From NCBI GenBank assembly GCA_004431415.1, contig QPMI01000410.1, forward strand, positions 1 to 30,283: 30,283 bases of DNA, in the 5' to 3' direction. Under the pieces are notes generated by a model. That model was not told the origin of the DNA, made no database searches, and saw only the letters and a list, made by a program, of their open reading frames with translations. This DNA is from Cyanophora paradoxa CCMP329. Its lineage: Eukaryota; Plantae; Glaucophyta. How positions within the stretch are numbered: position 1 is the stretch's first letter; each line of letters begins with the position of its first letter. Of this stretch, positions 2,502 to 24,557 are shown piece by piece. A program made the position numbers and the translations under genes.

Positions 2502-2784
2502 TGTCGCGTGCGAGATTAGTGTGTCTAATCGTGCGCGCGGGAAGCCCGTGCGGAGTGCAAGCTCGGCAGGGCGGGGTTTGGCGAGTGCTGCTGCTGTTAG
2601 CCACCGGGATGGTAGACTGAGGGTGTACCCGTCCAGCTACGGCGTACCCCGACACACGCATACAAGTGACCGCGGCGCTCTAACTAGCCTAGGCGCCGTC
2701 GATCTAGCAGCACGAAGGCTGCGCACATCATCTAGAACCCTAGCGGCTCACAAACGAGCATCCGCTATAATGTCGGATGCGACA
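2502..2784 (-). repeat. 3' LTR (283 bp)
   Basis: TGTCGCGTG...ATGCGACA, with terminal inverted repeat TGTCGC/GCGACA. Identical by eye to 23712-23994. Confidence 0.97.
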
Positions 2785-3049: not shown

Positions 3050-4099
3050 TGTCGCCCGGCAGGTGCCGGCACGACTCCAGCGTGGAGCGCCCAGGGGGCA
3101 AGGTCCAACTTCGGGCCGGCGGCCCAGGAAACTCGCACGAGGCGAGCGGATCGGAAGGGAGGAAGCCGAGGAGGCCCTGTCCTCGCCGCGCAGCAAGTTA
3201 ACCGCAGAGGCGCACGCTGCAACAGCAATTGCAACGCGGGGCGTGACGCTCGCGGTAGCGCCCAGTAGCCCCAGCGCAATGCCCGTCCCAAAACGTAGGG
3301 CTAAGCAGCTCGTCTAGCGCCACTGCTCAGGCATGCGCCGCGCTCTCGCGGTCCGCCACGGCGTCGGATTAGGGGCTGAGAAGCCCACAACGGCGGTGGA
3401 GCTAGTAACTCCAGGGCAAGGCTAGACGCCGCCCACAAGGTGCCCTCGTCGCCATCGTACGGCGGGAGGTACCCTGCCCGACCCGTGCTCGCGCGTCATT
3501 AAGGGGACGCGGCCCTCCAGGCGGTCCACCACCGAGCGTCCCCGGTGTGGAGCCCTGTATGGGGGAATTGTGCATCCCCAGTCATCGTACCCGGGGCGGG
3601 ACCCGGCGTCACGACCGCCTGTGTGTACCCCCGTTGGTGCTCGGCGCACCCCGGTACCCCACCAGGTCTTGCATCTCAAGGAGGGGGAATGCTCATCCCC
3701 TGTCACTGGGCCCGGGGCAGAATCCGGCGCCTCAGCCGCCTTCCGACTCCTCTGCCGGCGCAAGTCGCGCCCGGAGCTCGGCCAGGTCTTCGTAGGGCCC
3801 TCCGCCCGTCACTGAGCCGAGCATAGCTCGAGGCAGTCAGCCGCCCGTTGGCTCTCCTTCCTAGCCCGGGACTTTAGTGATTGTGGCGGGCGCTAGGCCC
3901 TTCTCAGCTCAACCCTCCGCGGGCAGCTCATCACTCTCGCGCTGCGCAGTTGCAGGCGCGGCCGCTCTCTGTCCTCGCCCTCCTGTGGGGCCGGGACGCG
4001 GCTCGGAGCCAGCTCCTCATGCTGCTCCCGCCGGGGCCGCCGGCGCTGCGGCCGCGGCTCCCGGTGCACCCGCCGCCCGCGGCCGCCCTCGGGCCGGCC

Positions 4100-5400
4100 G
4101 CGCGGGCGCGTTCGCATCGCGCATGCGGAACGGGATCATGCAATCGATGTGCACGATCGTCTCGCGGGTGTCGCGGGCCTTCTGGCGGACAGCGCCCACG
4201 GCGCCGTAGGGCCGGGCCAGGCCACGCACGACGTACGTGTACCCGCCCGGGTGCACGTCCATGACGGTGAACGGGCCGACCCAGGAGTTAAACAACCCTT
4301 GTCACGGTCGCCCAGCCAGCACAGGACTTTGTCGCCCACTTCGAAGCGGCGACGGTCCGGCAGGTCACCCGTCCGGTGCACCATTTGGCGGCGGTACCAG
4401 CGGCGGTGCTCGCGGACCGCGTCATCGCGGCTCTTCGCGGCGCGCACTACGGTCGCGACGTAGTCGGCGTAGCTAAGGGTGTCGAGCATTTCGACCCCGA
4501 AGCGCACGTCCGCGGGCAGCGTGAGCTCGTGCCCCAGGTGCAGGAGCGCGGGCGAGTAGCCCGTGGCCGCGTGCACGGTCGTGCGGAGCGCCAGCTGCAC
4601 CTCGTGCACGTGCTGGTCCCACTCGTGCATCGGCTCGCGCTCGGCGCGGCACGCCGCGTGGAGCAGCGTCTTCACGACGCCTCCCAGCCGCTCTACCAGC
4701 CCATTCGTCGAATGGTGGTACGCCGCGGCGTAAATGAACGAGTCCCGAGCTTCCGGAAGTACTCGTTGAACGGGCCGCCCTTCAGGCTGGACCCGTTGTC
4801 ATGAGAGGCGCAGCGGCACGCCCTCATTCGAGACGAGTCTCGGCCCATCTCGAGCATGGACCAGCCGTCCAGGTCGCCTTTGGGTACAGCCGCGTGTACT
4901 TGTCCCACGCGTTCACCCAGGCGACCAAATAGCGGTTGCCGCGCGGCGTCGGGTCGAGGTGGAACACGTCACCTGCCACAAGTCATTCCGGCCTCGGCCT
5001 CGATGACTGCGATCGCAGTTCGCCGCGGCTTCACAGCCTTGGCGAACTGGCAGCAGGGGCAGCTCCGCACGTAGCGGGCTACGGCCGCGAGCATGCCCGG
5101 CCACCAGAACTCAGCAGGATCCGGCGGGCGACGATCGAGGCGCCGCGGTGGCCCACCCATCGTGGTACGCGTACAGGACGCGGTCCTGCAGGACTCAGGC
5201 AGGACGGGCACGAAGCGGCCGTGAGGCGCGACGGGCGCGGACAAGCACGCCGTCGGTGTCCACGTCGAATTTCCAGCGAATCCGACGAAGGCCGCCTTGG
5301 CCTGACTGCAGAGGTAGCAGTCGCCCGTGTGCAAGAGGCGCGCGTGCAGCGGGCCTCGTTCACGCCATTCTCTAGCCAGGAGAACAGCTTGCGCACAGCG
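4100..5400 (-). CDS. Integrase (HHCC zinc finger, DDE core, GPF/Y module), frameshifted
   Basis: YAYHDG...EFWWPGMLAAVARYVRSCPCCQFAK; GNRYL; SHDNGSSLKG; YHHSTNGLVER; WDQHVHEVQLALRTTVHAATGYSPALLHLG; FEVGDKVL; WVGPFTV; VHIDCMIPF. Confidence 0.93.
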
Positions 5401-6744
5401 GGTCCGCCTTCTGCGCGGCGAGCAGCCTGACTCGCCGGGCAGGGAACATGTGCCGCAGGGTCTCGGGCAGGGCCGTCGAGGGAAGGCGCGGAAGCGCAAT
5501 CCCAAGTGTCCTGGACCAGCTCGAGCAAGCGCGGCTTGCGGCGGTCTCGGACCTCGCCCAGCTCAGGGCGGGGCGATAGCGTGACGAGAGGACTCTCGCT
5601 CGAGGCCTGCGGCGGGCGCCACTCGAGCCGGCGTCGCGCTTGAGGGCGCCTCGGAGGCGGCCGGCGGCTCAGAGGAGCGGCCGTCGCGCGGCGTCGACGC
5701 GGCCGGAGGACGACGCCGCGGGCGCGCCCTCGGGCCCTCATCAGGGTCGTCCTGGTGAGGGTACAGCGGCGGGCCGCAGCGCCAGTGGCGCGGGTTGTCC
5801 GCTTGCGGGGCGTCTTGCCGGGCGCGGGGCCTCAGGCGGTCGCAGGTTCGCGCGGCAGGGGCGCGACGGCCCTCGTAGCGCGCGGCCCTAGAGGAACCGA
5901 CGACGTACGTGCTCGAGGAGGGCACGGGGAACCGTCCTCGTCGAGCTCGGGCTCCTGCGCTGGCGCGGGCCTCAGGCTCGGCACAGGCGGCGCAGCCTCG
6001 CCATCGGAGCCCAGCTCCATCGGGTCGGACTCGGGCGCCGCGGCGGGCTCGGAGAGCGCGGGCCGGGGGCAGGCCTTGGCGACGGCGAGGCGGTGCCACT
6101 CGTCACCCTTGGCGCACCTCAGCCAGGTGGTGGGCTTCTGGCCGCGCCGAGTGGCGGACCGGCCTGCGGCAGCGCGCGCGCGGGCAGGGGCGCTTCCTGC
6201 CCCGCGGCAGGAGCTCGGGGCTCGGGCGGCGCCGGGCCCCGCGGGCTCAGTCTCGGCGCGCGCCGACGCGGCTCGGGGCGCGCGCGCGGGCAGGGGACGG
6301 GTCGTCGTCAGAGCCCTCCGGAAAGCCTCAGGCGGCGCGCCGCGTCCGACGCGGACGCGGCCCCTGGGCGGGCTGACGTCCCGCCTTGCGGCGGGAGCGC
6401 CCTCGAAGCGAGTGGCGCCGGAGGCGGCCTGTCGCCGCGCGACGAGGATCTCCGCCCGGCTGGGCGGAGCCGCGGCGCCGCGGCCTCGGCGGGCTCGGCG
6501 CTGACGCGGCCGGCGGCGCGGCCTCGGCCGGCTCGTCGGCGAGCTCGGTCAGGCGGGGGCCGGCGGGCCTCCACCGCTACCCGGGCCTCGCAGCGCCTTC
6601 GGCGGCGTGAGCGACTGCAAACAGCGGCAGAGGCTCGTCAAGGTCGCCGGGCTGGGGCACGCCGTGCCCCGTGCGCGGCCAGCGCGTCGGGCGCGGCCGA
6701 ACTGCCGTCGGCGCCGCCGGGCGCGAGAACCGGGTGGTTCAGTG

Positions 6745-7130
6745 GGGGCCGCGAGCAGGCGTCGGGCCCTCCGTTGTTGCGCCCCGCGCGGTACTTACGA
6801 CAAAGTCGTGGACTGCAGGAGGAGGGACCAGCGTCCAGCCTTCCGGAGGTCGCCTCGCGCGAGCGCAACACTGGAGCGCCTGGTGGTCCGTCCGGCCAGG
6901 ACTGGGGCCCTCCAGGAGGAAGTGCCGCCAGTACTTTATTGCCCATACAACCGCTAGCACTCGAGCTCGGTGGCGGTGTAATTCCGCTCAAGCGGGCGCC
7001 AGCGTCGACTGATGAACGCGATGGGCCGCTCACGGCGGGCGAGCCGCCATCGGATTGCGACAGGATCGCGCGATGGCGTACGTCGACGCGTCGGTCGACA
7101 GATGAAGGGCGCTCGAAATCCGGGTACCCA
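6745..7130 (-). CDS. Retrotransposon RNase H, frameshifted
   Basis: PFIC.TDAS; ERPIAFISRR; ERNYTATELEC/LAVVWAIKYWRHFL; RTDHQALQ; KYRAGRNNGGPDA. Confidence 0.92.
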
Positions 7131-8110
7131 AGTACCAGATCCTCGGCAGGGCGCCTTCAGCGCCTCGAAGGCGGCTTGGTGGACTCGGTCCATTGCCACG
7201 CGGCGTCCCGAAGCAGCAGGCGCTCAGCGGGTGGTGACACGGGCGAACCCGTTCACGAAACGCCGGTAGTACCCACCAAGCCCAGGAACGACCTCAATTG
7301 GTCAGCGTTCGCAGGCGGCGGTACTGGCGAATGAACGCCAGCTTCGCGGGTCCTGGCGATCCCTTCGGCCGAGACGAGGTGCCCGAGCAAGGCCACCTCC
7401 GCCACCCGAAGCGCACTTGGAGGGCTTCAGGCGCAAGTTCGCCGGCATGATAGCGCGGAACAGGCCTCGAGGTCCAGCAGTGCTGGGGCCGCTTGGCGAG
7501 AACACCGTGATATCGCGATATACGCGGTGACGCAAGTCGTGAGCAGGGGCCGAGGATGGCCGTCACGGCGCGCGAGAAGGCGGCCGGCCCGTTTGGTCAC
7601 GCCGAACGGGTCACGCGCCACTCGTAGTGGCCCCAGGGCACTACGAAGGCGTGTACTGCCGGGACGCGGGGTCCAGCGGCAGCTGCCAGAATCCCGCCGT
7701 CGCGTCGACGGTCGAGAAGATCATGGACCCCCGCAGGCGGTCCAGCTGATCGTCAATCCGTGGCAGGGAAGACGTCGCGCTCGGTGATCGCATTTAAGCG
7801 TCGGTAATCGACGCAGAACCGCCAGGTGCCGTCCTTCTTAGGAGCGAGCACGACCGCGAGCCATAGGCGGCTTGCGAGGGCTGGATCAGGCCCAGCTCAA
7901 GAGCGCTTTATTTCGTCACGGGCGAAGGCCTCGGCGTGCGGGCTTACACGCCGCGGGGCGTGAAGACGGGCAGCCGTGAGGTCAATCGGATCACGTGCTC
8001 GTAATGGAGGAGATTGGCCGTGCCCTCAGTGGCCGTGACCGAGTCGGCGAACGCGCACGAGTAGCGCTTCAGCAGAGCCTCTAGCTCGGCGCGTTCCGTA
8101 GCGCTCATCG
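7130..8110 (-). CDS. Reverse transcriptase (Ty3/Gypsy type), frameshifted
   Basis: Read manually on the minus strand: LEALLKRY; [21 protein letters not shown] (7797-7856); PRIDDQLD; [15 protein letters not shown]; PFGVT; TAYI(D)DITVFS (~7500-7528, one base missing); NLRLKPSKC; LLGHLVS; [15 protein letters not shown]. Confidence 0.94.
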
Positions 8111-8984
8111 CCGGATGCGAGCCGCATTCCGGGATCTTCGCGCGTGCACGGTTCCACTCCTCCTCTTCGGAAGACGACGTCCCGTCGCTTCCGGCGGTGC
8201 CGCGGGCGCCACGTGGGAGGGCCAGGCGCGGGGCCGGAGGGCGGCTCGCAGCGGCGCTTGCCTTGTCCTTGCCGCGCGCGGCGGAGGACTCGGCTACGGA
8301 GGGCGCGGGCGCTTCCGTTGTCCGGACAGAGCAGCCAGGGCCTTCCAGCGGTGCTGGCGCCGGTGCAGGCGGGCGAGTGGCCCGCTCGGCGAGGCGCCGG
8401 CGGCTCAGCTGCCTCGGCAGCGAGATTTATTTGATTCCCGGAGGGATTGGTGGGACTGCGTTAGCCCCTGGCGTGCAGGCGAGCCGCGTGGGCGCGGCGG
8501 CGTGCGGCGCGTTCAGCGCGGCGGGCGGGCCTGGTGCGCTCGCGCTCCTCTGGCGAGTCCAGCCAAGGTACCCGTCTCGCGCTCGCGCTCAGAGTCGGTG
8601 TCCGAGGACACGGGCTCGTCACAAAGCGCGAGGCCCTCCATTGTGACAATGGGACGTCTTCGCCCTCACCGCCGTCGTCGCGCAGCATGCGGACGAACAA
8701 GGGAGGCGCGCTCGCGCAGGCTCCTGCTCGGTGGCTACAGTCGCTTCGGACTGCCGGGCGGCGGTGCCGCGAAATAGGCCCTGGAGCAGGGTGCTGGGCG
8801 GCGTGGTGCCTCAGCTGCCGTGTAAGCCGCAGCCGTTCGATTGGCTCGGCGGCGCATCGCGCGGAAGCCTTGCCCTCGCTTAGGGTAGAAGGCTCGCAGC
8901 GTGCGAATGAAAGAGTCGGCGACGGTGCGCGCGACGCGTCGTCGGGCGGCGGGTCGAACCCAAAGTCGCCGGGCGGCAGGTTAT

Positions 8985-9290
8985 TAGCCTCGCCACCGCT
9001 ACAATGGCCCCGGCGGGAAGCAGGACGGGCTCATTGGCGGGATTTACTAGTCGCACGTGCAGGCTGCCGCCCTCGGCAGGCCGGCGGTGCAACTGGTGGG
9101 GCGCGAGTACCCGAGCGCTGACAGGGAGTCAGGCGCCGGCCCGACGGCGAGCGTCGGGGCCTGGTCCGCTGGCGGCGCAGGGCCGTCCAACACGCAGCGG
9201 ACCATCCACTCGCGGGCGTCCTTTAGGACGACGGGGCGGAGCACCGGACAAGGAGAGGCCCTTTGATTGTCCGGGCACAGAAAAGGGATC
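8985..9290 (-). CDS. Degenerate dUTPase-like beta-rich segment between PR and RT
   Basis: PVVLKDAREWMVRCVL...GGSLHVRLVNPANEPVLLPAGAIVAVA resembles the VxxxNxxxxxxxLxxGxxVA segment found after the protease in many Gypsy pol proteins. Confidence 0.5.
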
Positions 9291-9329
9291 ACGTGGGGGC
9301 GGAAGTGCGCGTCGCGCGCGTGCAGGCAC

Positions 9330-9720
9330 CAGCCCGAGCTGGTGGTGTCAATCCGCCCTCGATCCTCATGATCGTGCCGATGCCCAGGAGCATGTCGGCG
9401 TTCGGGCCAAGCGAGCCGTCAGGGACGACGTACACCGCTCGCGAGACGTACACGTCGCCGAAGCGCAGCACGACATGAGCAATCTCAGCCGTGATCGTGG
9501 CGTGGTGAAGGAAGGCCCGGAGGACCTTCACACCCGTGTAGCGCGTGCCGGCGGCATGTGCTTTTTCTCGCCAACGTCTCCCATTGCGCCAGTGTCAAAA
9601 ATGAATTTGACGCGCGTGCTCTCGCCGAGCGTGCCGTCGGCATGCAAGGCATAGACGAAGCCCGGGCACTGCAGGAGCAGGCGCCGGAAATCGTGCGGGA
9701 GACCGTTGATCCCGTCGATA
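9330..9720 (-). CDS. Retroviral-type aspartic protease, frameshifted
   Basis: RVKFIFDTGA (DTG at 9596-9588) and downstream VYVVPDG...ADMLLGIG. Confidence 0.88.
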
Positions 9721-9744
9721 ACCTTCGCGATCGGGACCGGGCGT

Positions 9745-12540
9745 TCAGGCGGCCGTCGGGCGCGCCATCCGGGGACTCCGGGACTGCGAGGTCCGTGGGC
9801 GGTCGGGGCCGTAGCCCACGAGTTCGTCAGGCTCAGGAGCCTGGAAGTGCAGCGCGGCGCGCTGCTTGCTGGAGCGGGCGTGGAGCCCCTCGGAGCGGCT
9901 CGTCGGAGCGGCGGAGGACTTGCGATCCGCTCCGTCGACGACTGGCGTCGGCTCGCTGCTGGCAGCGGCGGAGGCCAAGGCGCGCTCGGCGATGGCCCGC
10001 GGCTGCAGTGCAGCGCGCGTCGCGAAGTCATCCTCATCGTCACCATCGCCGTAGATACGGAGAATGGCGCGGTGGGCGGGGCGGCAGCGGCCCTCGGCTG
10101 TGGCCTCCTGGGCGAGGCCAATGAGGCGCAGCAGTTCAGCTTCAATGCGGTCGAACTGCTCCATGCCCGGGTAATTTGCGGCCCACACCGTCGCAGCGGC
10201 GTTCCGTGCCGCCCAAGAGGCGCCGCTCGGCAAGGTGGTGCCGGTGAGATCATGGCCCGCGGCCGTGGCAATCTCATCGAGCATTTCAGACAAGACGGCC
10301 GGCTGGGCATTGCGCTCGAGCAGGAGCCGCAGCCGCGCGCGCCAGTTCTTGGCGGCCTGGTAGTGGGCACTGCCACATTCTCGTCCGTGGCCGGCGGGGC
10401 CTGGCCGGAGCTCGAGCTGGCCGCGGACCCGCAGGCGGTACATGAGGCCGTGCGGCCAGTAATAGCCGTGCGGGCCGGCGATTTGCGGCAAGAGTGGGGG
10501 CGGCGGCAACCCCCAGCCGGGTACGCGCGGCGGGGGCGGGCCCATCGACGCCGGGTACGGGTACGGGAACGGCGCGGGGGCCAATTCCGCGGTGGACTGG
10601 GCAGCAACGCGGGCGCGCTTGCTGCGGCGCTCAGCCTCGGCGAGGAGGCGCTGGCGCGTGTCCTCGGCCGGGTCCGGCTCGAACTCAAGGCCATGCTGGC
10701 GGGCATAGGCAGTGAATTCGGCGTCGTCCATGTCGGCCAGGTCGAGGGACTCAGGTCCCGTAGACGAGGCGCTGGGCACGGTGCCGCGAACGGTCACGCG
10801 ACTGCCCTGCAGGATACGCGGCCGCTCGCGGCGCTGGCCGGTGGCGCCCGCGGCTGCGTGCGCGTCGGGGCAGGCGAGCTCGACGACTCCTGCCGGGGCG
10901 ACTCGGTGCGCTCGCGGGAAGCGGCGGCCTCGCGGCTCTGGCGGCGCCCGCGGCGGTCGCGGGAGCGCTCGCGCTTTGGCTCGCTCTTCTTCCTCGAGGG
11001 CGAGGGCGTGGCCGAGCGCTTGGGGGCAGGGCTGGGCTCGCGGGAGCCAGAGCCCGTGGTGCCCGAGGCAGAGGACGATGCCGCAGCTTCGCCGGGGCGG
11101 CCGCTGCCACGGCGTGGTCGGCCTGCTGCTGGGCGCGCAAGCTCGGGGCAGATCCTCTGCCGTGTACCCGTTCCAGTTCTGGAGCAGCTCGGCGCGCAGC
11201 CGGTAGTGGAACGGCGTGATTGCCGCCACCGTGTCGCCGAGGTCGCTGGCCTCGGGGGCGCAGGGAACGGCGCCGCGCCTTGCTGGGCGACAGTGTCCAG
11301 GGCAGGGGCGGGATAGAGGTCGGAGACCATAATCCGCTTCGCCTTCACGCCCGTGAAGATGGGCCAGAGGACGTCATTGATCTTCTGAACCCAGTTCAGG
11401 AGAGCCGAGGCGATGGGCTCCTGGCCCGCGAGCGTCGCGCCAGCAACGAGGTGCCTGGCGGCCCACGTATCGCGCTCGACGTGGCAGTACTGGCGCATGC
11501 CGTGCGCCGCTACCCGAGCGGGCAGGATGCGCTCAAGGCGGCGGACGGAGAGGAGGGGCTCGTCCTCCTGCTCGTACTTGGCGAGAACAGCGCGCAGCTG
11601 CTTCGTCGCCGGCAGGCCCCAGATCTGCAGCAGGGCGTCCGAGAGGCGCTTGCTGGCGTCTGCCGCGTTGTCCAGCCAGGACGTATGCGTGGCGTTGGGG
11701 CGCGGCAGGTCTGGCATCGAGAGCCAGAACGCCGTTGTCAGCGGGAGCTGAGAGGCGATGACGAGAGCTGCGGTCTCGTCAATCGACTCGCCGAGCTGGC
11801 CGCTCTTGAGGTGCTGCAGGACGGCGTAAAGCTCGTCGCCGTCAGCGGAACGTGCATGGGCCCCAGCTGCTGCCTCGGCCGCGGAACGAGTGGCCGGGTC
11901 GGCGCGGTAGCAGGTGGACCACATGAACTCGTATATGGCCGTCGGCCCCACAATGTGCATTTGGGGTTGAATCCCTTGGTCGGCGCGGGCCGGGGCTGGT
12001 CGGGCAGCTCGTGCCCCAGCACCCAGGCAGCCATGCTGTTCACATACCCCGCAAGCAGGGATGCGACGAACTCCCGGGGCGGCAACGGGGACCACGTGGG
12101 TCCGTGCTTCTGCACGCCCGGGCAGACAACCGGGTACTTCCGGTGCCCGCGGTCCTTCGGATCGACGAGCGGGCGGGCCGCTCGAATCCGAGCACGAACA
12201 CGCGCCGAGGGAGGCGGTCGTACTGGCGACGCGCCTCGGAGGGCGGGGCGTGCTGCATGGCCACGTGGGCAGGACCAAGCGAGCAGCGCGTGGCATTCGT
12301 GCCGACGGGATCGCCCATGACATCGACGTTGTTCACGTCGAGCTCAGTGCTCACGTGCTTCTCGCCCGTCTGGATCGGGGTGCCTGGCAGGAGGCCGCGG
12401 ACCCGGGCATCGGGCTGGGCGACGCCACGGATGCCGAAGCCCCTGCCGAAGCGGGGCTCGTGGAACACGACCAAGCGCTGCCCACGCTTGGCGCGGTTGA
12501 CCCCGATGGGCGCCTCGAACGTGTGCGGGCGAGCGAGGTA
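9745..12540 (-). CDS. Unknown retrotransposon-encoded protein region, distal part (between the nested insertion and protease)
   Basis: Overlapping minus-strand frames (12540-12040, 12115-11738, 12323-10794, 11229-9745) have globular-protein composition, e.g. ELYAVLQHLKSGQLGESIDETAALVIASQLPLTTAFWLSM. This region joins in frame with the 17280 side when the insertion is removed. No family recognised. Confidence 0.68.
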
Positions 12541-12568
12541 TGCCTTGCAGAAACCTTCTCCGGTGTAA
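12541..12568 (+). repeat. Left TIR of the nested element
   Basis: TGCCTTGCAGAAACCTTCTCCGGTGTAA versus the reverse complement of the right end, TAGGTTGCCGAAACCTTCTCCTGTGCAA. Confidence 0.85.
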
Positions 12569-12571
12569 ATT

Positions 12572-12790
12572 TGACACAGAATCGCACAGAAAAGCACAGC
12601 ATAGCACGGGAAAGCACGGCATAGCACAGAAAAGCACGGAAGAACACAGGAAAGCACAGGTTGCACAGAAAAGCACAAGGAAGGCACAGGTCGGCATGGG
12701 TGGGCACAGGCTGACATGGGTAGGCACAGGGAACATGGGTAAACATGGGTGAACATGGGTAAACAGCGATTGCACGGGTAAACACAGGAG
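12572..12790 (+). repeat. Left subterminal ~10-bp tandem array (RCACAGR / CATGGGT units)
   Basis: About 20 degenerate 10-mers such as AAAGCACAGG, TAGGCACAGG and AAACATGGGT, followed by an AT-rich tract at 12790-12850. Confidence 0.88.
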
Positions 12791-13419
12791 TATAATTTAT
12801 TAATTGAAGATGTTTATTAGAATAAATCTACATAATTATAATTTTAATTTGCGCGGTGGGCGCCGGCGCGCCTCCGGGCCGGGCACGAGGCGTACTGCAA
12901 GGCCGGGCAGCAGCAGACGGCGGCGGGCCGGCTCGCGGGATGCGCCGGAGGCGCGGCGGGCGGCGGCACGGCTCGCCCAGTCGGGGCGGACGCGTGCTGG
13001 ACGGCGTTGCAGCGTGGTCGGCAGTGGCGCGGCTCGCGGGACGGAGCTGCGGCGTGGCAGGCAGCGGCGTTGCTCTCTCCGCACAGCGCCAATGCAGCTA
13101 TTGTTAACGTTGTATGCCATGGGCAGCTTGTTTTAGCTAAAGCTAGTTTTGCATGCCAGGGGAAATTTTCCAAGCTCTCTCTCTTCTCTTTTAGCTCAGC
13201 CCATGTACATGCTTGTTGCTTCGAATTCGCTGCCGAACTAACAAACAAGCTTGAGCAAGATCTAGCTATATACATAAATTAAAGGCACGTATGAAGAATG
13301 GGCACGCTCCGCCGCCACGGGGTATGAAGAATGGGCACGCTCCGCCGCCGCCCGCGGCCGCCGGCGTTCCGCCTTAGCCCTATCTTGCTGCCAAATGCCG
13401 AGAATCCACCCCGCCCCGG

Positions 13420-13920
13420 CAAGGCGCGAGCCACGCCGCAACATGCCGAGCCTGCACTCCGCCCCGTCCGGCGAGCCGCGCCGCCGCCCGCCGCGCCTCC
13501 GCCCCGTACAGCGAGCCGACCGCGGCGCCCCTGCCCCGTCCAGCGAGCCGCGCCGCCGCCCGCCGGGCCTCCGCCCCGTACAGCAAGCCGCACCGGCGCC
13601 CCCTGCGCCGGCGCCCGGCCGGCGCCCCGGCCCGGCCAAGCCACGCAGCTCCGCCCGGCCCCGCCCGGGTGCGGGACTCCTTTCGCGGCGGGTGTCGGCG
13701 GCGGGCGGCGGGGCGGCTCGCTGGGACGGCGGCGCAGCGGGCGGCGACGCGGCTTGCCGGCCGCCGCCCCGTTCCGCGAGCCGCCCCGCTGCCCGCTGCG
13801 CCGCCGCTCCGTCCCGCGAGCCGCGCCGCCGCCCGCCGCGCCGCCGCCCCGTCCCGCGAGCCGTGCCGCCGCCGTCCGCTGCTGCCCGTGCGGCGAGCCG
13901 CGCCGCCGAAGGCCGCGCCG
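13420..13920. repeat. GC-rich degenerate minisatellite (GCGAGCCGCGCCGCCGCCCGCC-type units)
   Basis: Recurrent CCGTCC(C/A)GCGAGCCGCGCCGCCGCCCGCCG units. Inverted copies lie at ~12900-13070, and a 28-bp direct repeat lies at 13289-13316 and 13322-13349. Confidence 0.75.
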
Positions 13921-14589
13921 GGTTACGTCCTGCGCATCGTCAGCTATGCATTCGCGCGCCGCTGGCCCCAAGCTATGCTTGGGAGGCGCACCCGAGACAA
14001 CCGCCAATCGGGAGTTCGGCGTCGTTCCGCGCGCACGCAGCGCCCGGCGAGTCCAGACCCACATGCACTGCGGGCCGGGCCCATCTTAGAGGAACGCTTC
14101 GCGCATGGAAGCGTGCGAGAGCTCGAAGTCAGCGGCGGCCAGCGTGCCGCCCAACCGTCGACGCGTTGAACGCTCCTAACAGGCCGCGGGTCAGAGACGG
14201 CGATCTGCGGGCGTGAGTGAGACGTACGGCGAGTAACCGGACAGGTAGGCGAGGAACTTGGCGAGCACGGCGAGTACGGGCGGTTGGGAACAAGCAAGTC
14301 AGCGCGCGGGGCGCGCGGATGCAGTCAAGGCGGAGGCCAGTCCTGCGGCAACACCCTCTGGCTGGCGAAATAGCCGCGCGCTGCGTGCCACGAGCGGCCG
14401 CCAAGTCTGCGAGGTGCGAAGCGCATCTGGCCCGAGCACGAAGGGAGCTGGAGTGGAAGCTGAGGAGCTGCAGACTCTGCACTGCAGCCAGCCGAGCGAA
14501 CTTGAGGCCAAGGGCGCAAGCGCAGCAGCTGCAGCTGGCACCGCTGGGTATCGTCCGTAAAAAAAAGGGGGGGGAAGGAATGACGGCCA

Positions 14590-16850
14590 TTATCGTCGAA
14601 TTTCCTTGAAAAATGCATTTCGGGCTGCTACATGTGCGAACAGTGAAGCGAATGCTTCGTTTGGTTGTATTTAGGCACATAGTAATTGTTTCAGCACTAA
14701 GCTGTGACTCTTGACCCTCTGAACGCACTCTCTTGTGGCTGAAATCAAGGGGGGGCAAAAAAGTGAAAATGACCAAATCAGTCTCTGCAGAAGCGCATCC
14801 ATATGATCTCAAGCACTCCTGAAGTAAGGTATTGATTATATGAGTGATTTAAAGCCGCTTTCGGAAGGCCCAATACGAGTTTTCGCTGAGATCATGCAGG
14901 GGCCATGGTTGAAACATGCAATGCTCTCACGGGTTGCCAGCATCGACTCAAGACACGCTAAATACCTCTTTAGAAAGCCCTTAACTTCCAGATTACAGGA
15001 ATAAATTTTTTGTCCGGTCTGCCGATTCCCGGAACGTCGGTGCACCTTCATGTGTCTCACTGAGCACATCATGAGCACAGTCTGGTGACTTGATGAACAG
15101 CTCATCTTCTCTTCAGTACTGAAAGAAGTCATTCCTGGAATTGCTGATTACCGTCAAAATGAAGTCGTCAAAGCTTTCGAGGGTCCTCTCTCTGATTTTG
15201 AAACAATCCGAGTTTAGATCTAAAGCCATTAGGCGCTAGCACCTTTTTTTGCCAAGGGGGGGCCTGTGACTCATTAAGCTGCACGAGCACCAGCAATGCG
15301 TGCCACGTCATGAACTGCTCCTTATAGAGAGGGTTCGATGCATTGGAAGGCGGATCGAAGCGAGGAACGCACATGACCAGACCTAGGCCTAGGCCTAGGC
15401 GGTCTCCAAGGGAATTCGTTGTCGTACCCCGGGTCCCAACTTGCCGACCGGCGACCGGCCGCGGTGACTGCGTCGGCTGGCCCTCGCGGCGGCAGACGGC
15501 CTTGCCAGATAGTTGCAACTCCTGGCAGCACGGCGGCTCGGTGCGTCGGTTCTGGGCTTCGCCGCGCAGCCGGACTCCCTGACTCTGCGAACAGGCCGAG
15601 CAGCGGTGCTGTTGCCGCAGCGAACGCGGCCACTTTGAGAGAGAACGATGCACCTCTTGCGCCTTGAGGCTCTCGCCCGGCTCGTGCTGGGTCTGATTTC
15701 AAACGCAGACTGTCGCTGCCCCTGCTGCTGGGTTCGGCCGCGGCCGCGAACGCTCTCGAACGCGTCGTTTTCGACCTCCTTCCTCCCTTAATCTCTACTC
15801 GTTGCCCGGCCGCCGCCGGTCAGCTTATGTTGCTTTGACAGGCCCGCGCAGAAAGGCGAGGCCCCTGCCGATGCGAAGCAAGGTGTTTCTGGTTTCCGTC
15901 TGTTTCCTTCGATCGCTCATCCCGCTTGCATGTCAGGGAACACGCACGACCGAGCCCCGCGAGCACGGCCAAGTGGCGGCCGCGACTTGCTCGCTGGCAC
16001 TCTTGGCGGCCGGGCGGGAAGCGGTCCCGCTGGTCAAGAAACCTCGCGGACGATGCTAACGCACGAGCCTCGCTAACACGGCGCGCTTCGCCCGGTTCCG
16101 GGTCCTGTCTCTTCCAACACTCGCAGCTCGCCTGGCTCCTTCTCCGCAGGCTAGGTGCTCGTTCTTGTTTCCGCTACTCTCGCCTTGATCTTGTTCTGAC
16201 ACCGGGGACGCGCGCAGCGCAGCGGGTGCCGTTCACGCGCGGCCAGCATCTCGCACTTCTTGCTGCGGGAGCTCGGACGGGTGCGGTCTTTTCGCAGGCG
16301 CGCGTTCTTCTCCTCTTTCGCTTGACGCTCCGAGCGCAGCGAGCGCCTCGTCCTCGCCCTCGGCTACGGGCGGGGATGGTGCCGCTGTCACTCCGGATCC
16401 GTTCTTCTGCCACTTCTCTTTGCCGAGGTGCACAGCCGCGCGCGCGCATGCCAACCTTGTCTCTTTCTGTTCGAGCGTTCGCTGACCGCGACGCGCACAG
16501 CGCAACGAGCGCCGCGAGGTGCCGCATGACCTTGTGCGGGTTGCATCACTTTACGTCTGAGCCGGTCTGCTAGCGCTGCTCCCTCTACTTGCCGAGGCGC
16601 ACAGCTCGTTTTTGACACTCGCGTGCTCGCAGCGACCAGCGATTGTCCTGCTAGCAGGGCAGCGGGTCAGGAGCTCGCTGTTTTCGGGAGTATGGCTCAG
16701 AGGTAGGGGGCAGCAGCTGCAACTCGTTTTCTCAATGCTAGCTATTGATAGGGCTGCGCTGCCTTCGCGCACATGCATTTTTTGCTGGCAATGCGTTTTC
16801 TGTATGACTGCTTTCTGCATATAAGTAGTGGTGGGAGCTTCGGAGAGCAG
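14590..16850 (-). pseudogene. Possible decayed N-terminal part of the nested element's transposase gene
   Basis: Lower-GC segment with interrupted minus-strand frames containing Cys/His clusters (IACFNHGPC; TITMCLNTTKRSIRFTVRTCSSPKC). No catalytic DDE core seen. Confidence 0.3.
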
Positions 16851-17061
16851 CGGCCCTGCCCGGGCTTTCGAAGCCTGCGCATGCGCATCCCCATATGCAG
16901 GGTGCCCTCGGACCGGGGCCGGCGCCGGCGCCCTGGCCTGGTCCAGGCCGCGGCCGGCCACGGCCGGCCCCGACTAATTTGATTTCTCGAAGTTGAGATA
17001 ATTTTGAGTTAACTTTAATTATAATAATAATTTTGATTTTTCATGCAGAATATTAATATCC

Positions 17062-17260
17062 GTAAAACACAGGGTTGCACAGAACACACAGGGTTGCACG
17101 GTTAAACACAGGTCTACATGGATAAACGCCGGTTTGCATGGGTAAACACAGGCAACATGGGTAGGCACAGGTGGACACGGGTAGGCACAGGTTTACATGG
17201 GTGGGCACAGGTGGACACAGGTCGACACAGGTCGACACAGATTGCACCAGATTGCACAGG
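17062..17260 (+). repeat. Right subterminal ~10-bp tandem array
   Basis: Same units (GTAGGCACAG, GTCGACACAG, CATGGGT), preceded by an AT-rich tract at 16975-17060. Confidence 0.88.
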
Positions 17261-17279
17261 AGAAGGTTTCGGCAACCTA
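17252..17279 (-). repeat. Right TIR of the nested element
   Basis: TTGCACAGGAGAAGGTTTCGGCAACCTA, followed by the TSD GAGGTA. Confidence 0.85.
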
Positions 17280-20200
17280 GAGGTACGCAAACGCCTGGCG
17301 GCACGTGTGGTGCAGGGCGGTGTTCAGCACCGAGTAGGCGCGCGTGATCGGCCCATCGAGGCGGTTTGCGGGAGTGGGCTCCGACGCGACCCACTGCATG
17401 ATGGACTCGTCGAGCCCCATCATCGCCGCGACGTAGGGCAAGCCCTGAACGTCGGTGCCTTGCATGGACGTCGGTGCCGGTGGCACGGGCGGGCCATACA
17501 ACATTACCGCGGCGGGGATGCCGCGGTTATGGCCCTCGACGTTTGCGATGAGCGTGGAGGCAAGGCAGTGCATGGCTGCATCAGCGTCGAGCGCGTTCGG
17601 GTGGAAACGCGTGACGACTGGGGCAGTCGCATTCACGCAGGGCGCGTCGGGCGGCCCGTTCTCGCCGAGGGTGAGCGGCACGAGCCGCGGAATAGCAGCC
17701 CACGGGTACTGCTCGGCCGTCGGATTGCGGGCCGGGCTACCGCCGAGCGGGTCGGGCAGCAGCACGCAGTACTTGTCGCAGTACCGGACGCGCTCGGGCG
17801 TGCCGTCGTACCACGTGCGGGCCCAGCAGCAGGTGCCGCCGGCGTGGCCGTAGCAGTGGAGACCCCGGACGGTCCGGCGACAGGCGCAGCTGAGGAGCTG
17901 GCCATGGGCACGTCGCCCTCAGCGTCGCGATCGGCTTCGCTACGGCGGGCCTCGCCTTCCCAGTTGTCGAGCCACTGCACAAAGGAAGGGAGCGAATTGG
18001 GGCGTTGCCGCCAATTCGGGCCTCGTGGATCTCGCCCAGCAGCCAATTAGCGCCTTCGACGACGGTGTCGTAGCAGCGGTAACTGGTGGCCAGCCACGAA
18101 TCCGAGTCGTCCTTTGCGGCCTCGCGCTGGACGACCTCGGGAATTTCGAGGTTTGCCGGGTACGCCGGGGCGAGCGTACGGACGAGCTCCTCGCACCCCG
18201 GGTGCGAGGCGTTAACCATGTCATAGAAATAGCTAACGTCGTCCGGCAGCTTCTGCTGCTCGCGCGGGACGAAGGGCGTGATGCCCGGTCCGGTGCGACC
18301 GCTGTCTAGGCAGGACAGCATCCAGCGCGCATGGCTGGGGACTGGGGCGACAACCTCAGAGAGGGTCGGGCCCGTGTTGGCGGAAGAGCGCCAGCGTCCC
18401 TCGACATAGTACGGGGGCAGGTGCGACACATGCAGCTCAAAGCGATCTATGAAGAACGCGTCCCAGTGAAGGGCATTCCACTGCGTGGTGTCGGCCGGCA
18501 GGTCCGGCAGCGGCACGAGCAAGCCGGCGCTGGAGGCGGCGAGCTCGAAGGAAGCGACAGCGCGCTTCAGCATGCGAATGTTCGCCGGGTGGCGGTTCGG
18601 CATGACGATTTCCAGCCGCTCCCACTGGGGGCGGTCGGGGTTCTCATGAAACCAGGCGAAGCGGCGCCAGGGCGGCTGGGCCGCTTCAGCTTCGAGCCAG
18701 GAGGCGAGCTCCGGGTCGGGAGCGATGTGCAGCGTGACCGGGTTTTGAGCCGGCTGCAGGCCGCTGTTGGCGAGCCACATGTGCTCGACCTGAGTCGGCC
18801 AACGGCTAGAGGGCTGGGGCAGCCGATGAGCTCGAAGAGGTGGGCGTCAATGCCCGCACGGACAAAGAGCGCGTGCCGCATCCTCTCGCGCGTGTCGTCG
18901 TCGACGCCAGCGCTCTCATCGGACTCCATGGGGTCAGGAGAGGGCGTGCCGGGGCCCTCTTCCGCTTCCCCTTCGCCTCGGCCTCGGCATTTGCCGGCTT
19001 GGCGGGGCGGGCCGGCGGCTGGTGCCGCGGGTGCGAGCGGGCTTGGCGCAGAGGTCGTTTCGTCGACCTTGCCCTTGCCGCGGCCACGGCGGCCGGCGGC
19101 GGCCTCACGCTCGGCGACCTCGCGAGCCATGCGGTCGCTGGTCTGGAGGTCGTCATCGAACTCATCCCAGACCGGACGGTGCGAGCGCTTGGCCGTGAAG
19201 CGGCGGCGTACCTCGCCCAGCATCAAGCGCACGCGGTCGCGCGGCTTTTCGAGCAGAGCAACGGCGCGGACGCCGGACTGCGAGATGCAGTAGCAAACCC
19301 AGGTGAAAATGCTACGGTGCATTTCACCCCAGCGGTTCGCGGCAGAGAACTCGCCGTGGAGGGCGTTCACGAGCCATGAGTACTCGCTCGAGTCACGGAC
19401 GCCGCCAGGGAGCGGGCCACGGCCCTCACGGGGACAGTGCGGGATGCCAGCAGCTCAATGACATCGTAGTCACAGCACCGCCCGCGGCGAGTGATCGGGT
19501 AGGAGCGATCGTAGAACGCTTCAACACTCGGTCCAAGCATGAGGGGGTCGGCATTCGGGAATTCCCGGAACCGGAGCCCTTCGCCGGGGCCGACGGGGCT
19601 GTCTACCACGACCGTGGGGGCGGCGTGATAGGTCCCCAGGCCCATGAGCCAGTCGGAGAACAGCAAGCTGCTGAACTCCGTGGGGCGGCGCAGGTCGAGG
19701 ATCCTGGCCAGGCGGCGCACGGCGACGCGGGGGAGCAACTTGATGGCCCGGAACCCCTCAAGGTCTGAGCCGTGCTGCACCAGCTCGGACAGGTTCACGA
19801 GCGGCGGCTCCCCGGCCATGCAGCGAGCGCGGCGGCTGTTTTGCATGGCGATAACGCGCTCGGGGACGGTGCCCTTGGCGCGCGTGTCGAAGCACGTGGC
19901 TCCGGCAACCTCAGTCAGCCGCTCCGTGTATGTTTGGAACAGCGACAGTGGCGGGGCCACGTCCTTAGGGCTAATCCACGCGAAAAGGCTGCCCTTCTCG
20001 AATCCGAGTGCGCCCGGCAGCACCGTAAGGGTCCGGAAACGGATTATGGCAAGCACAAGCTGCACGCAGTAAGCGTGGAAGTCGGAATCCTCGTCGAGGA
20101 GTTCGCGAGCCGCAGCGAGCGCTGTGCGCATGGCGTGGTAGCCCGTCACGGTACGGGAGACGTTCCCGTCGGGCGTAATGTCGAACCGCGGGTCGCCGTT

Positions 20201-21550
20201 TGGTTCGACCTGCAGGTGCTGGATCCCCGGCCATTTCAGGCCCGCTGAGCGAGCAGGTACGCCGACGAAATGAGCAGGGATAGCAGCGGTAAACGCTCGC
20301 TGTCCGGCAGTGCGCTCGAGTCTGAGGCGAGGCCCCAGACGTTCGAGGCGGGCGCGTGCCGCTCCACGACAATAGCATGTCGTCCCAAGCTTTCAGCGAG
20401 GCGACGTCGAGCTCATTGGGGTCGTCGGGCCAAAGATCCTCAGGATCAGGGGCCGAGCCAATACCCGAGCACTTGGTGACGGGGTGGCTGAGTTGGGCAC
20501 CGCGGATTGCGAGCATCGCAATGCTCGAATCGGGGCCCTCCTGGAGGCGGTAATCGAGCTTGGCGATCGTCGCCGCAGCCTCGATCACGCAGGCGAGGAG
20601 TGAGCCTCGGTGCGGTGAGCCAGGCGACCCAGCAGCAGGCGCTCGGGGCGCCGCAGGCCGCAGGCCCCCAGGAACCGGTCAAGGGCTATGCCTTTCGGGC
20701 CCTCCTGGGCGAGTTCGCGAACGAGCAGCGTCTGCTTCGCGTCGTCGAGGCCGTTCGTGAAGAGCAGCCCAATGGCGCGCTCTAGGTCACGGGGCTTGGC
20801 CGTCAAGTGGGCGTACCACTTTGTGAGCGGCATGAGCACCGGGCTCACGTAGCGGGGCAAGTAGGGCCCGCCCTCGCGCTCGCCCTCTTTCTCCACGTCC
20901 GTGGCAGGCACGTGGTCATACGGCATGTAATCCAGTGCCCACGACTTCGTGGAGCACCGGGTGGTGCCTGGGGCACGTCGCGGTCCGGAGAACCGAACGG
21001 CCCGAAATAGGCGGGCTTCGAGGTGTCGCTGGCGTAGGGCGCGGAGCCCTGGCCAGGGTCGGAGCTCGGGGCGGACTCGGAGTCCGTGTCGAGCCGCTCG
21101 GCGTCGCTCTCCCCAAGCTCGGACTCCCCGGAGCCGTCCTCGCTGGCCGGGTTGGCGCAGCGGAGGTCCCGCTCGAACGCAGCCTCGCGAGTGGCATCGT
21201 CGAGGGCGCCAGCCGAGATGTCCGCCGCAGCGGCATCGAAGGCGGCCTGGTCGCGCGCCTTGGCGGCCATGGCGAGGGCGTCGGACGGCTGGCGGACCGC
21301 TGCAACGGCCGCAGCCTCGTCCGAGTCGGAATCCGTGCCACGGGCATCACATGTACAGACAGCGACCGAATGGACGGGCCGCCCGGAGGGGCGCCGGCGT
21401 TCGGGTTGCCGCCTGCAGACGAGGAGCTGGCGCCACGCGCGCTCTCGTGCAGGGCGGCCTGCTGCTGCATCACTTGCAGGTGCTGGAAGAATGCAGCCAT
21501 GGCGGCCGAGTTCGGCGAGTCAGAGCGGGGCTCGTTCTCGGCGCGAACTT
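17280..21550 (-). CDS. Unknown retrotransposon-encoded protein region, proximal part
   Basis: A chain of abutting or overlapping minus-strand ORFs (21500-20916, 21270-20845, 20926-20585, 20588-19971, 20149-19367, 19370-18567, 18780-17737, 17765-17277) with W/F/Y-rich globular composition and acidic/Pro-Ala spacers. No family recognised. Confidence 0.7.
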
Positions 21551-23238
21551 GGTTGAACCGGGCCGCTGCCCGCGGTTCATGTCCTGGCCGTAGCCCCGGC
21601 CGCGTCCGCCGCGGCCCTGTGACTCAGCGTCCGGCAGTCCCGGCGGATGTGGTCCAGAGACCCGCAGGTCCAGCAGCCCGGCTCACGGTCGTCCTGGGCG
21701 CTCTTCTCCTTGCCCTTCCCCAGCGGGCGCTGGTTCGGGCCGGAGGCAGGGGCGCGGGTGGCGCCGCCCGGCTGTAGCCGCCGCCGCGGTCCCGGCCGAA
21801 GCCGCCGCGGTCGTTGCGGTAGCCGCCGCGGGCGTACGGCTCCTGGCGGTGCCCGCCGCGGTGCGAGAACCCGCCGCGGGTCGGGCCGGGCTCGCTGCGC
21901 TCATCGGCGCATCCTCCTCGCGCGCCGGCCGATCGCGGCGCCGCGCGCGCTTATCCGCAATCCCTTTCACCCACTCGAGTATGGGATATTGGGGAAGGGG
22001 CCGTGCCCACACGCAGTTCCACGTAAAGTGGCAGCGGTCGAGGGCCGGCATCTCCACGTGCATGCACAGGGGCATGGGGACGTGGTCGTGCTCGGGTACC
22101 CCAGGCGCTCCTCGTCGGGGTGCCGGCGACCCGCGACGGGCGCGCCCTGCGGAGCCTTCGTGCCCGGGGCCGCATTGACGGACTTGACGGGCACGGCCTC
22201 GATGGGCTCGTCGCCGTCGTCGTCGCTGGCGGCGGCCGCTACCGGCGCCAGCTTGCGCACGCGGGGCTTCTTAGCCTCCGGCGCCTCGAGTGCGGCCGTG
22301 GCCGTGGGGGGCAGCACGGTGCGGCAGCCGTGCGTCTTGCACGCTGCGACGAAGATTTCGTCGAGCTGGAGCGGCGACAGGGCGCCGTCCTGTGCAAGGA
22401 TGCGCTGCTGCAGCGCGGCGAGGAACGCGCGCAGAGTGCGCTCGTTCGCCTGGGCGAACCCGGCCATCCGAACATCGAGGTTCTGATATTCCGGGTCCTC
22501 GCTCGTCGAGCGGGCCTCGAGCGCAGTGCGCAGACACTCCGCATAGTACACGGCGAGGCGCTGGCCCTGGGGCAGCGTGTGCTGCACTAGGGGCATGAAC
22601 CAGTCATGCCATGAGCGCGGGTCCTCGCCCGTGTAGGGCTCAGTGAGAGCCCGGCGGGCCGCGTGCGGGCGCGTCTCATGAATCCATGCCGTGATCGTCG
22701 CGAGGAGCCGGGGGCACGCAAGTACGAGTCACGCACGGCCACGATAGTGGCATGATCGCGCGCGCAGCTCTGCTGCAGCGCCAAGATTGCAGCCTCATCC
22801 TCGGCAGTCCGCAGATCAGCCGGGACAAGTCCGAGACGAGCGAGCAGGGCGCGGTCACGCTCCAGGCCAGCAATAGAGGCCTCATAGAGGTCGCGCTTAC
22901 GCTCAATCTCGGCGCGGAGGGCGCCGGGGCGGATGCGCCCGACGATCACTCCGGCAAGCGCCTCAGACTTAGTATACTCCTGGCCGCCGCAGTGTCCGGG
23001 CCAAAGAGATACTTCGTCGGCTGAGCCGACTGGAAGTTCCGGACATCCTTCCGGAACCGGTCACCGTCGGCGAGGCGCGGCTTCGCGGGGAGGAAGGCGA
23101 TCCGCGCGGATCATCCTCCGCCGCAGCGGCGGTGCCAGCGAGCTGCACAGCAAGTTCGGCCTTCGCAGGCTCAACGTGCGCAAGTGCGGACAGCTGGCTA
23201 CGGACTTCAGAACTGATCAGTTCAGAAGTGTTCGACAT
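21550..23238 (-). CDS. Putative Gag (helical capsid-like region, Cys/His knuckle, RGG tail), frameshifted
   Basis: First coding region after the PBS (candidate ATG at 23238, MSNTSEL). It contains a coiled-coil-like LRAEIERKRDLYEASIAGLERDR, YTGEDPRSWHDWF (22635-22597), helical RAFLAALQQRILAQ, CMH..RCHFTWNC (22066-22013) and GRGGRGRG (~21600). The assignment is positional. Confidence 0.6.
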
Positions 23239-23686: not shown

Positions 23687-23711
23687 GGTTCGATTCCGGC
23701 AGAATGGCGCC
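23687..23711 (-). promoter_or_regulatory. Primer-binding site (complement of a tRNA 3' end)
   Basis: Minus-strand GGCGCCATTCTGCCGGAATCGAACC abuts the 5' LTR. Its complement GGTTCGATTCCGGCAGAATGGCGCC reads as a tRNA T-loop through to CC(A). The usual leading T of TGG is absent. Confidence 0.82.
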
Positions 23712-23994
23712 TGTCGCGTGCGAGATTAGTGTGTCTAATCGTGCGCGCGGGAAGCCCGTGCGGAGTGCAAGCTCGGCAGGGCGGGGTTTGGCGAGTGCTG
23801 CTGCTGTTAGCCACCGGGATGGTAGACTGAGGGTGTACCCGTCCAGCTACGGCGTACCCCGACACACGCATACAAGTGACCGCGGCGCTCTAACTAGCCT
23901 AGGCGCCGTCGATCTAGCAGCACGAAGGCTGCGCACATCATCTAGAACCCTAGCGGCTCACAAACGAGCATCCGCTATAATGTCGGATGCGACA
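23712..23994 (-). repeat. 5' LTR (283 bp)
   Basis: Identical copy of 2502-2784, followed on the minus strand by the PBS. Confidence 0.97.
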
Positions 23995-23999
23995 GCGAC
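23995..23999. repeat. Right TSD GCGAC of the LTR element
   Basis: GCGAC immediately follows the right LTR. Confidence 0.93.
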
Positions 24000-24557
24000 G
24001 ACCGTCGGACGCCTCCAAGTGCGGCGCCGGCTGCTCGATTTCTTCCAGATTTCCTTCGAATTTCCGTGTTGATTCCCGATCCGAGCAGGTTCCTGACGCC
24101 GTACATGGAGGGGATCGAGCACCCGATGCACCCGAACGAGCTGATGGTGATCGTGCAGAGCGACCCCTTCCAGAAGCTCGACCAGGAGGGCGTCGGGCAG
24201 CTCATGCGCATGGCCGTCGAGCGCGGGCGCGCCGTGCGGCCGGACCTCGCGTGCGGCATCTGCGGGGAGCACGGGGGGGAGCCGAGCTCGGTCAAGTTCT
24301 GCCACCGCATCGGCCTCGACTACGTCTCCTGCTCGCCCTTCCGCGTCCCCGTGGCGCGCCTGGCGGCGGCCCAGGCGGCCGTCGAGGAGCCCGGCTTCGT
24401 CTCCGACTCCACCTCCGCGGGCGCCAAGACATGGTCCGAATTTGCCGCGCTTCTAGATCTTCCGAATGCAGACGCAGTGCCGGGGCGCCGCTCACTCGCT
24501 CGTCACAGCTGTGAATTCGGGTTGTCGCCATCGACGCCAAGCGGCTGCGGGATGTAA
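23995..24557 (+). CDS. PPDK: Pyruvate phosphate dikinase, 3' exons resuming after the retrotransposon
   Basis: The sequence continues D...ASK, then intron 24019-24088, then FLTPYME...[15 protein letters not shown]...[42 protein letters not shown], the canonical PPDK C-terminus. The stop position is uncertain because a further intron after ~24432 is possible. Confidence 0.93.

Follow-up and report, generated by a model that had tools for sequence, protein, structure and literature searches.

A large in-frame coding region between nucleocapsid and protease in Ty3/Gypsy retrotransposons of the glaucophyte Cyanophora paradoxa

Results and discussion

Architecture of the element

The window analyzed, the whole stretch of 30,283 nucleotides of contig QPMI01000410.1 of Cyanophora paradoxa CCMP329 (assembly GCA_004431415.1), contains a Ty3/Gypsy retrotransposon of the long terminal repeat (LTR) type on its minus strand (23994 to 2502), in which a very large coding region, hereafter called the cargo, separates the nucleocapsid (NC) zinc knuckle of Gag from the protease. 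The element is flanked by a 5-bp target site duplication (TSD; GCGAC, at 23995-23999 and 2497-2501), and its two 283-bp LTRs (TG...CA) are identical, so that the insertion must be very recent. Its size, minus a nested insertion, is about 16.7 kb. Pfam matches in the window were a CCHC knuckle, RNase H (RH), and an integrase (IN) zinc finger, arranged as in Gypsy elements. Taking the window and the gene models of other copies together, the domain order Gag, protease, reverse transcriptase (RT), RH, and IN was retrieved.

The cargo amounts to about 260 kDa and, as delineated by comparison of three families of the element (A, that of the window, B, and C; Table 1), consists of folded-looking blocks with low-complexity linkers between them. 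An earlier interpretation made without database searches (the sequence-only reading) had placed about 2,550 codons between a knuckle at 22013 and the protease motif DTG at 9596. The latter position was confirmed, but the canonical knuckle is located at 21634-21675, which shortens the gap to about 2,430-2,440 amino acids (aa; 2,434 from knuckle to DTG in the family C gene model P0055). Block II has 95 invariant columns out of 276, and block IIIa has five invariant histidines. A profile of the protease block matched the protease of a sister family, D (iE 4e-26), which itself is recognized as Asp_protease_2 by Pfam (E 5e-4). The N-terminal portion of Gag gave no Pfam capsid match, its presumed capsid role being derived from its position.

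Block IIIa is split by the nested insertion (12541-17279), in which each end bears arrays of subterminal repeats of 10 bp. Its 35 open reading frames (ORFs) gave neither a recognizable transposase nor a credible Pfam match, and it is likely a non-autonomous DNA transposon. Short-read contigs of all three DNA-type sequencing runs compared join 12534 to 17280, omitting 4,745 bases; hence, the junction AFAYL/ARPH, at which the two halves of the cargo had been proposed to meet in frame, is real. This joint was not seen in a presumed-RNA run, in which a loose contig end at 17279 suggests other insertion sites of the nested insertion.

Integrity of the cargo reading frame

The frame was traced through the element by means of a codon-model path, which contains many frame changes, all explicable as missing letters, in the cargo as well as in RT and IN. 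The stretch or part of it was contained in 20 of the 24 listed sequencing runs, 17 of which held about 0.82 of its words; these runs carried a single organism label. In three DNA-type runs, the cargo was covered by contig pieces of 2.1-4.7 kb with one to three substitutions. The surplus letters of these contigs equalled the letters required by the path, modulo 3, in all five pieces compared (12 versus 9, 8 versus 2, 4 versus 4, 4 versus 4, and 1 versus 1), which is an accounting argument and not a letter-by-letter one, single insertions or deletions being seen for 12 of 84. The contigs add single letters at the frame breaks, where the window sequence has very likely lost them. Random codons of the composition of the cargo would be expected to contain about 43 stops in 2,379. 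The GC content by codon position of the cargo (0.69/0.50/0.83) resembled that of Gag (0.72/0.51/0.85) and IN (0.70/0.44/0.90), values that are not independent, as the frames were partly chosen by the codon model.

Gene models of the annotated assembly, some of which skip short stretches, probably via false introns, display the same architecture. Model P0011 (2,739 aa) starts ahead of the knuckle and reaches beyond the protease, and P0055 (4,924 aa) continues from knuckle over protease to pol in one model; the succession of knuckle, cargo, and protease is also present in P0023. It is thereby hardly credible that the cargo is one more nested element, that it arose as an artefact of assembly, or that it is filler without coding function. 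Such an origin could be read from the family A model P0006, which is devoid of most of the cargo and continues from block I straight into the protease. Against it, the cargo is open, occupies the same place in three families, and is built of conserved blocks and variable linkers; moreover, neither termini nor a TSD were found for the cargo itself. Indeed, the short-read contig coverage and the conservation of the blocks across families refute this explanation.

Families, spread, and conservation

All matches to the cargo were EukProt models of C. paradoxa. The cargo sequence was present in models from 20 contigs (nine of family A, including P0006, which lacks most of it, seven of family B, and four of family C). 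The existence of a lineage of large Gypsy elements that carry a multi-domain cargo in frame, as proposed in the sequence-only reading, is thereby supported. Between families A and C, the identity of blocks I (34%), II (48%), IIIa (38%), and IIIb (36%) is comparable to that of Gag (35%), while RT-RH is 84% and the protease region 82% identical. An open frame combined with block-wise conservation at such distance is an indication of purifying selection. Between families A and B, RT-RH is 99% and Gag 87% identical, as opposed to only 52-66% for cargo blocks I to IIIb. This contrast (about 65% for the cargo; P0026, P0029, P0011, and P0002) suggests a recent recombination that may have swapped the pol or the gag-cargo module, and it is as expected under module exchange or an arms race. 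In sister family D (RT-RH identity 77%), the approximately 1,000 aa modelled upstream of the protease did not match any cargo block (13 family D proteins scanned). Model P0069 of this family, from another contig, contains upstream of the protease an unrecognized region of about 1,000 aa or longer with an Arg/Ser-rich tract, which is unrelated to the cargo of families A, B, and C and is possibly a second cargo.

A candidate frameshift signal behind the protease

The gene models of families A, B, and C end shortly after one shared motif behind the protease. In families A and B, contigs of three runs insert a letter at 9243 and at 9258, which places a stop codon in the protease frame at 9223-9225. 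The heptamer C CCU UUU sits in X_XXY_YYZ register 18 codons upstream of this stop, and RT-RH-IN is encoded in the -1 frame. All formal components of a -1 signal were found, i.e., an in-frame heptamer, a spacer within 5-9 nucleotides, a 3' structure, and an overlapping open -1 frame; the X_XXY_YYZ form and a -1 shift rate of 5% are described for Rous sarcoma virus (PMC5009743). No difference in the heptamer occurred among those listed for the contigs of families A, B, and C, with three adjacent spacer positions varying; families A and B have both arms of the stem unchanged, and family C retains the 3' arm. From the stem onward, families A and B share 24 identical residues in the -1 frame but differ in the zero frame, and this conservation of the -1 frame begins before the ORF1 stop and before the first methionine are reached. 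Only two X_XXY_YYZ heptamers occur on the sense strand of the element within the window, and a stem of such kind at such spacing was encountered at 50 of 16,000 positions.

The conserved heptamer and stem are likely to direct a -1 ribosomal frameshift into RT-RH-IN. ORF1 would then encode Gag, cargo, and protease (about 3,100 aa); as it stops after the protease, with pol in the -1 frame, a product of about 4,850 aa would only be minor. The single open polyprotein of about 4,800 aa of the sequence-only reading is thus not upheld. It is very improbable that the whole element is one such ORF after all, or that pol is reached by splicing or from a start of its own, the frameshift signal being coincidental. 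Family C model P0055 does join protease to pol, and the uncorrected window reads through the junction in one frame. Yet, P0055 is without the junction residues, as a predicted intron would give, the two letters added by the contigs of three runs give families A and B their stop, and conservation of the -1 frame extends upstream of the first methionine.

Annotated features and genomic context

The element is inserted in a pyruvate phosphate dikinase (PPDK) gene, Pfam PEP-utilizers domains being found on both flanks. The flanks concerned are window positions 1-2501 and 24000-24520, between which the element breaks the 3' part of this gene, apparently in coding sequence. The stretch that may serve as primer-binding site (PBS) resembles 25 nucleotides of a tRNA 3' end, exceeding the usual 18, and Rfam gave no tRNA match for it. 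A tRNA-Sec primer, considered because of the 9/4 layout of acceptor and T-stem, found no Rfam or literature support. Positions 5600-6700 encode a low-complexity linker of several hundred residues from RH to IN, which is also present in families C and D. At the start of the -1 frame, positions 8994-9119 resemble the dUTPase-like remnant that some Gypsy elements have between protease and RT (without Pfam match), and a repeat of about 35 bp occurs three times in the element's 3' untranslated region (2915-3046). All 23 matches of the integrase search were Cyanophora proteins. No chromodomain was found in P0055 and P0069 (E up to 5) or in the pol models; some chromovirus clades are without one, so that this result does not assign the element to a branch. 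Finally, positions 25100-30283 contain a minus-strand, intron-rich host gene with DExH helicase motifs recognized by eye and very GC-rich introns, and no Pfam match was obtained in the four ORFs scanned. The C. paradoxa genome's LTR content is given as 1.77% (PMC6704402).

Table 1. Features of the Ty3/Gypsy element and its nested insertion, with positions in the window
Feature	Position	Strand	Remarks
5' LTR	23712..23994	-	283 bp, TG...CA; identical to 3' LTR
PBS-like stretch	23687..23711	-	Resembles complement of tRNA 3' end; sequence only
Presumed capsid region of Gag (N-terminal), with ORF1 start at ATG 23238	22324..23238	-	87% A-B, 35% A-C
Atypical Cys/His cluster	22013..22077	-	C-x2-C-x11/12-H-x4-C; kept in families A, B, and C; the knuckle of the sequence-only reading
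Canonical CCHC zinc knuckle (NC)	21634..21675	-	Pfam zf-CCHC, E 5e-5
Cargo linker after NC	20870..21633	-	Low-complexity, acidic/Ala-rich
Cargo block I	19556..20869	-	About 420-450 aa, orphan; 66% A-B, 34% A-C
Cargo block Ib	19158..19555	-	About 140 aa; 52% A-B, 19% A-C; fastest-changing folded part
Cargo block II	18088..18896	-	About 270 aa, Trp/Pro-rich; 65% A-B, 48% A-C; best conserved
Cargo block IIIa, first part	17280..17822	-	Whole block 65% A-B, 38% A-C; split by nested insertion
Nested insertion, not cargo	12541..17279	.	4,739 bp; 6-bp TSD GAGGTA, imperfect terminal inverted repeats, 10-bp subterminal repeats
Cargo block IIIa, second part	12187..12534	-	
Cargo block IIIb	11167..12097	-	About 310 aa, orphan; 65% A-B, 36% A-C
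Cargo linker	10375..11166	-	Arg/Ser-rich and Pro-rich, basic patches resembling nuclear localization signals; short helix-loop-helix-like motif at about 10635-10745
Cargo block IV	9985..10374	-	About 130 aa; 40% A-C; 79% A-B over 57 aa only
Aspartic protease region	9288..9740	-	DTG at 9588-9596, in ORF1
Candidate -1 frameshift signal	9243..9287	-	Heptamer C CCU UUU (9287-9281), 5-nucleotide spacer, 9-bp stem
ORF1 stop codon	9223..9225	-	Models of all three families terminate at this stop or a few codons later
Pol in -1 frame	3900..9280	-	End approximate; Pfam RT_RNaseH, Integrase_H2C2; RVT_1 and rve in models of other copies
RT	about 7260-7990	-	Within pol
RNase H	about 6800-7100	-	Within pol
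Integrase	about 4110-5200	-	Within pol
3' LTR	2502..2784	-	283 bp; purine tract at about 2786-2796 precedes

Searches for relatives of the cargo

As the sequence-only reading had stated, the cargo is unrecognized, no match to a known transposable element protein being obtained in family, structure-sequence, and profile searches. Scans against Pfam, PHROG, and NCBIfam and a tblastn search of phage yielded no credible match, nor did the sequences of the PDB, the best E-values of which (0.067 and 0.44) are chance-like. Pattern scans of viral, metagenome, and prokaryote genome contigs did not reveal a relative, and word-based protein searches returned C. paradoxa models only. An exhaustive HMMER search of blocks Ib to IIIb against 1.84 billion representatives retrieved seven proteins, all belonging to these elements, and no host gene; for blocks I and IV, subjected to weaker searches, no relative was found outside Cyanophora. 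P-loop, HExxH, CxxC, deaminase, and PD-(D/E)xK patterns were absent from the five cargo models scanned, and no transmembrane segment common to the cargo families was found. Neither internal repeats nor likeness to the Gag block could be detected (28 profile pairs, best probability 1.3%), a comparison on which a duplicated capsid or internal repeats were rejected as origin of the cargo. A LEM/HeH motif in the linker was discarded too, as it remained sub-threshold, in family C only (E 0.07-0.16), and was absent from the family A piece. AlphaFold2 predictions on cargo alignments of three and four sequences were unusable (pLDDT 27 and 34). Of the presumed-RNA runs, one contained a few short pieces and the other none, which bears neither way on expression. 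No description of these elements was found in the literature searched; Repbase, subscription journals, and supplements may hold one.

Possible role of the cargo

It is put forward, as an even call, that this recent Cyanophora element produces its cargo one to one with Gag by means of a likely -1 shift, and that the cargo is likely cut by the protease into free accessory proteins that probably counter silencing or help to handle long RNA. Translation of ORF1 would yield Gag, a cargo of about 2,430 aa, and protease in a 1:1 ratio, and the shift behind the protease would supply RT-RH-IN through a minor product; if the shift rate resembles that of Rous sarcoma virus, cargo and protease would be made with every Gag. 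The protease may cut in the low-complexity linkers, and several accessory proteins would be released before or during particle assembly. These proteins might counter host silencing in the nucleus, which is the lead guess, or help to handle the long RNA. Ty3 is described as having 540 capsid copies, a capsid interior of about 5e4 nm3, and an RNA of 5.2 kb (PMC6525542). As computed, 540 cargoes of 2,400 aa need about 1.7e5 nm3, about three times a Ty3-size interior; therefore, either early cleavage by the abundant protease removes the cargo or the particle greatly exceeds that of Ty3 in size. Furthermore, C. paradoxa is described to methylate its retrotransposons and to silence methylated genes (PMC12344493), so that an abundant accessory protein would, as a guess, have something to oppose.

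Alternatively, the cargo may serve as a structural component in a particle of unusual size, staying on Gag or forming an inner scaffold for the packaging of two 16.7-kb RNAs. This role, considered unlikely though the strongest of the competing ones, would fit a cargo fused behind NC with predicted Gag stoichiometry, a conservation between families A and C that equals that of Gag, and an element RNA about three times the length of that of Ty3 (PMC6525542). It is opposed by the need for more than three times the whole Ty3 capsid interior, by the lack of repeats between blocks and of likeness to Gag, by the faster divergence of cargo than of Gag between families A and B, and by the unmatched region of about 1,000 aa upstream of the family D protease. 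Release of the cargo is favoured over this structural role because, between families A and B, the cargo differs far more than Gag and RT, because no capsid-like repeat occurs, and because basic and Arg/Ser-rich patches are present. Capture of an enzyme or host gene that has since diverged strongly, such as a superfamily 1 (SF1) helicase, acting in reverse transcription or RNA remodelling, is a still weaker candidate and improbable. Retrotransposons carrying SF1 helicases have been described (PMC6338049), block IIIa has its invariant histidines, and some stretches of family A recall helicase motifs V and VI, as judged by eye against the consensus; yet, no common catalytic pattern occurs in five cargo models, no helicase was matched by Pfam, no host gene emerged from the exhaustive search of blocks Ib to IIIb, and enzymes are generally encoded on the low-copy side of a frameshift. 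The SF1 helicase identity made out by eye was rejected, the helicase-like stretches of family A not being kept in families B or C. Lastly, it is highly improbable that the cargo functions in entry or in the manner of env, as a module between gag and pol serving cell-to-cell spread, as proposed for the planarian element Burro. Its position does equal that of the env-like region of Burro (PMC6431247); against this, the highest 19-residue hydropathy is 1.46-1.76 with no segment standing out in all families, cysteine accounts for about 1% of residues with few invariant ones, and no Pfam env or fusion match was found.

Several points weigh against the release of accessory proteins from an abundantly made cargo. 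The volume argument assumes a shell of Ty3 size and would fail if the shell were larger or if a short Gag were made by splicing. Most repeats in C. paradoxa are methylated, with no escape seen for these families, and the pattern between families A and B may be explained by simple pol recombination without host conflict. As to the frameshift, the 5' stem arm is resolved only in part in family C, and the stem energy of -23.5 kcal/mol does not stand out in an element so rich in GC (mean -22.0, standard deviation 4.5). In addition, no molecular activity is identified by Pfam, PHROG, NCBIfam, PDB, or structure prediction.

Relation to known elements

The precedent for the layout is Burro/GYPSM1 of planarians, which the sequence-only reading had not named. 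This element exceeds 30 kb, with an internal region of up to 25 kb and thousands of copies, and its ORF1 of 4,873 and 5,140 aa has many domains between the Gag knuckles and the protease (PMC6431247). As far as that description goes, both elements are Gypsy-like, with an N-terminal Gag CCHC and, ahead of the protease, a multi-domain cargo of very large size in the same frame, whereas the Cyanophora element measures 16.7 kb, has 283-bp LTRs, and resides in a glaucophyte. Also, none of the domains listed for the Burro cargo (MATH, SUMO-like, BIR, ankyrin, BCL2-like, and env-like) was found here by Pfam, the env-like assignment in Burro having been made with HHpred (PMC6431247). No planarian proteins were among the matches of the cargo searches. 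The layout thus works like that of Burro, compared by description, while the size and the named domains of Burro are not shared.

In alpharetroviruses such as Rous sarcoma virus, the protease is encoded in the Gag frame, as in the Cyanophora element. Rous sarcoma virus also combines an X_XXY_YYZ heptamer with a 3' structure for a -1 shift into pol (PMC5009743), but the Cyanophora element is a Ty3/Gypsy element without env and has 2,430 aa between NC and protease. Ogre, Retand, and Athila are likewise large Gypsy elements with accessory coding regions mostly without known domains, although their extra ORFs are described as flanking the polyprotein on its 5' or 3' side (PMC6317226), whereas the Cyanophora cargo lies inside ORF1; a plant mobile domain was not matched by Pfam in the cargo. 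A functional analogy is offered by CERV of Cer1 in Caenorhabditis elegans, an orphan Gypsy/Ty3 accessory protein that acts in the nucleus in the export of unspliced RNA (PMC10309623). CERV, however, is described as the product of a 3' ORF made via a spliced mRNA (PMC10309623), and no sequence link to it turned up, none having been searched for directly. A further analogy, again functional only, is with insect retrotransposons that carry an SF1 helicase as accessory domain in their polyprotein, proposed to be a silencing suppressor (PMC6338049), but the Cyanophora cargo is without a conserved helicase motif.

Conclusions

It is possible, although this is held with less confidence than the release of accessory proteins itself, that a glaucophyte Gypsy lineage built four or five new folds into Gag and moved the frameshift behind the protease, resulting in mass production of a suppressor of methylation silencing or of a giant-particle scaffold. 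A second case of the Burro-like layout, in a very distant host, suggests that large cargo has landed repeatedly at the junction between NC and protease. From the place of the candidate frameshift, cargo and protease are predicted to be made at Gag levels. Finally, the folds of the cargo and an anti-silencing action are testable, as the host is a culturable, methylating alga and three diverged families are available for comparison.

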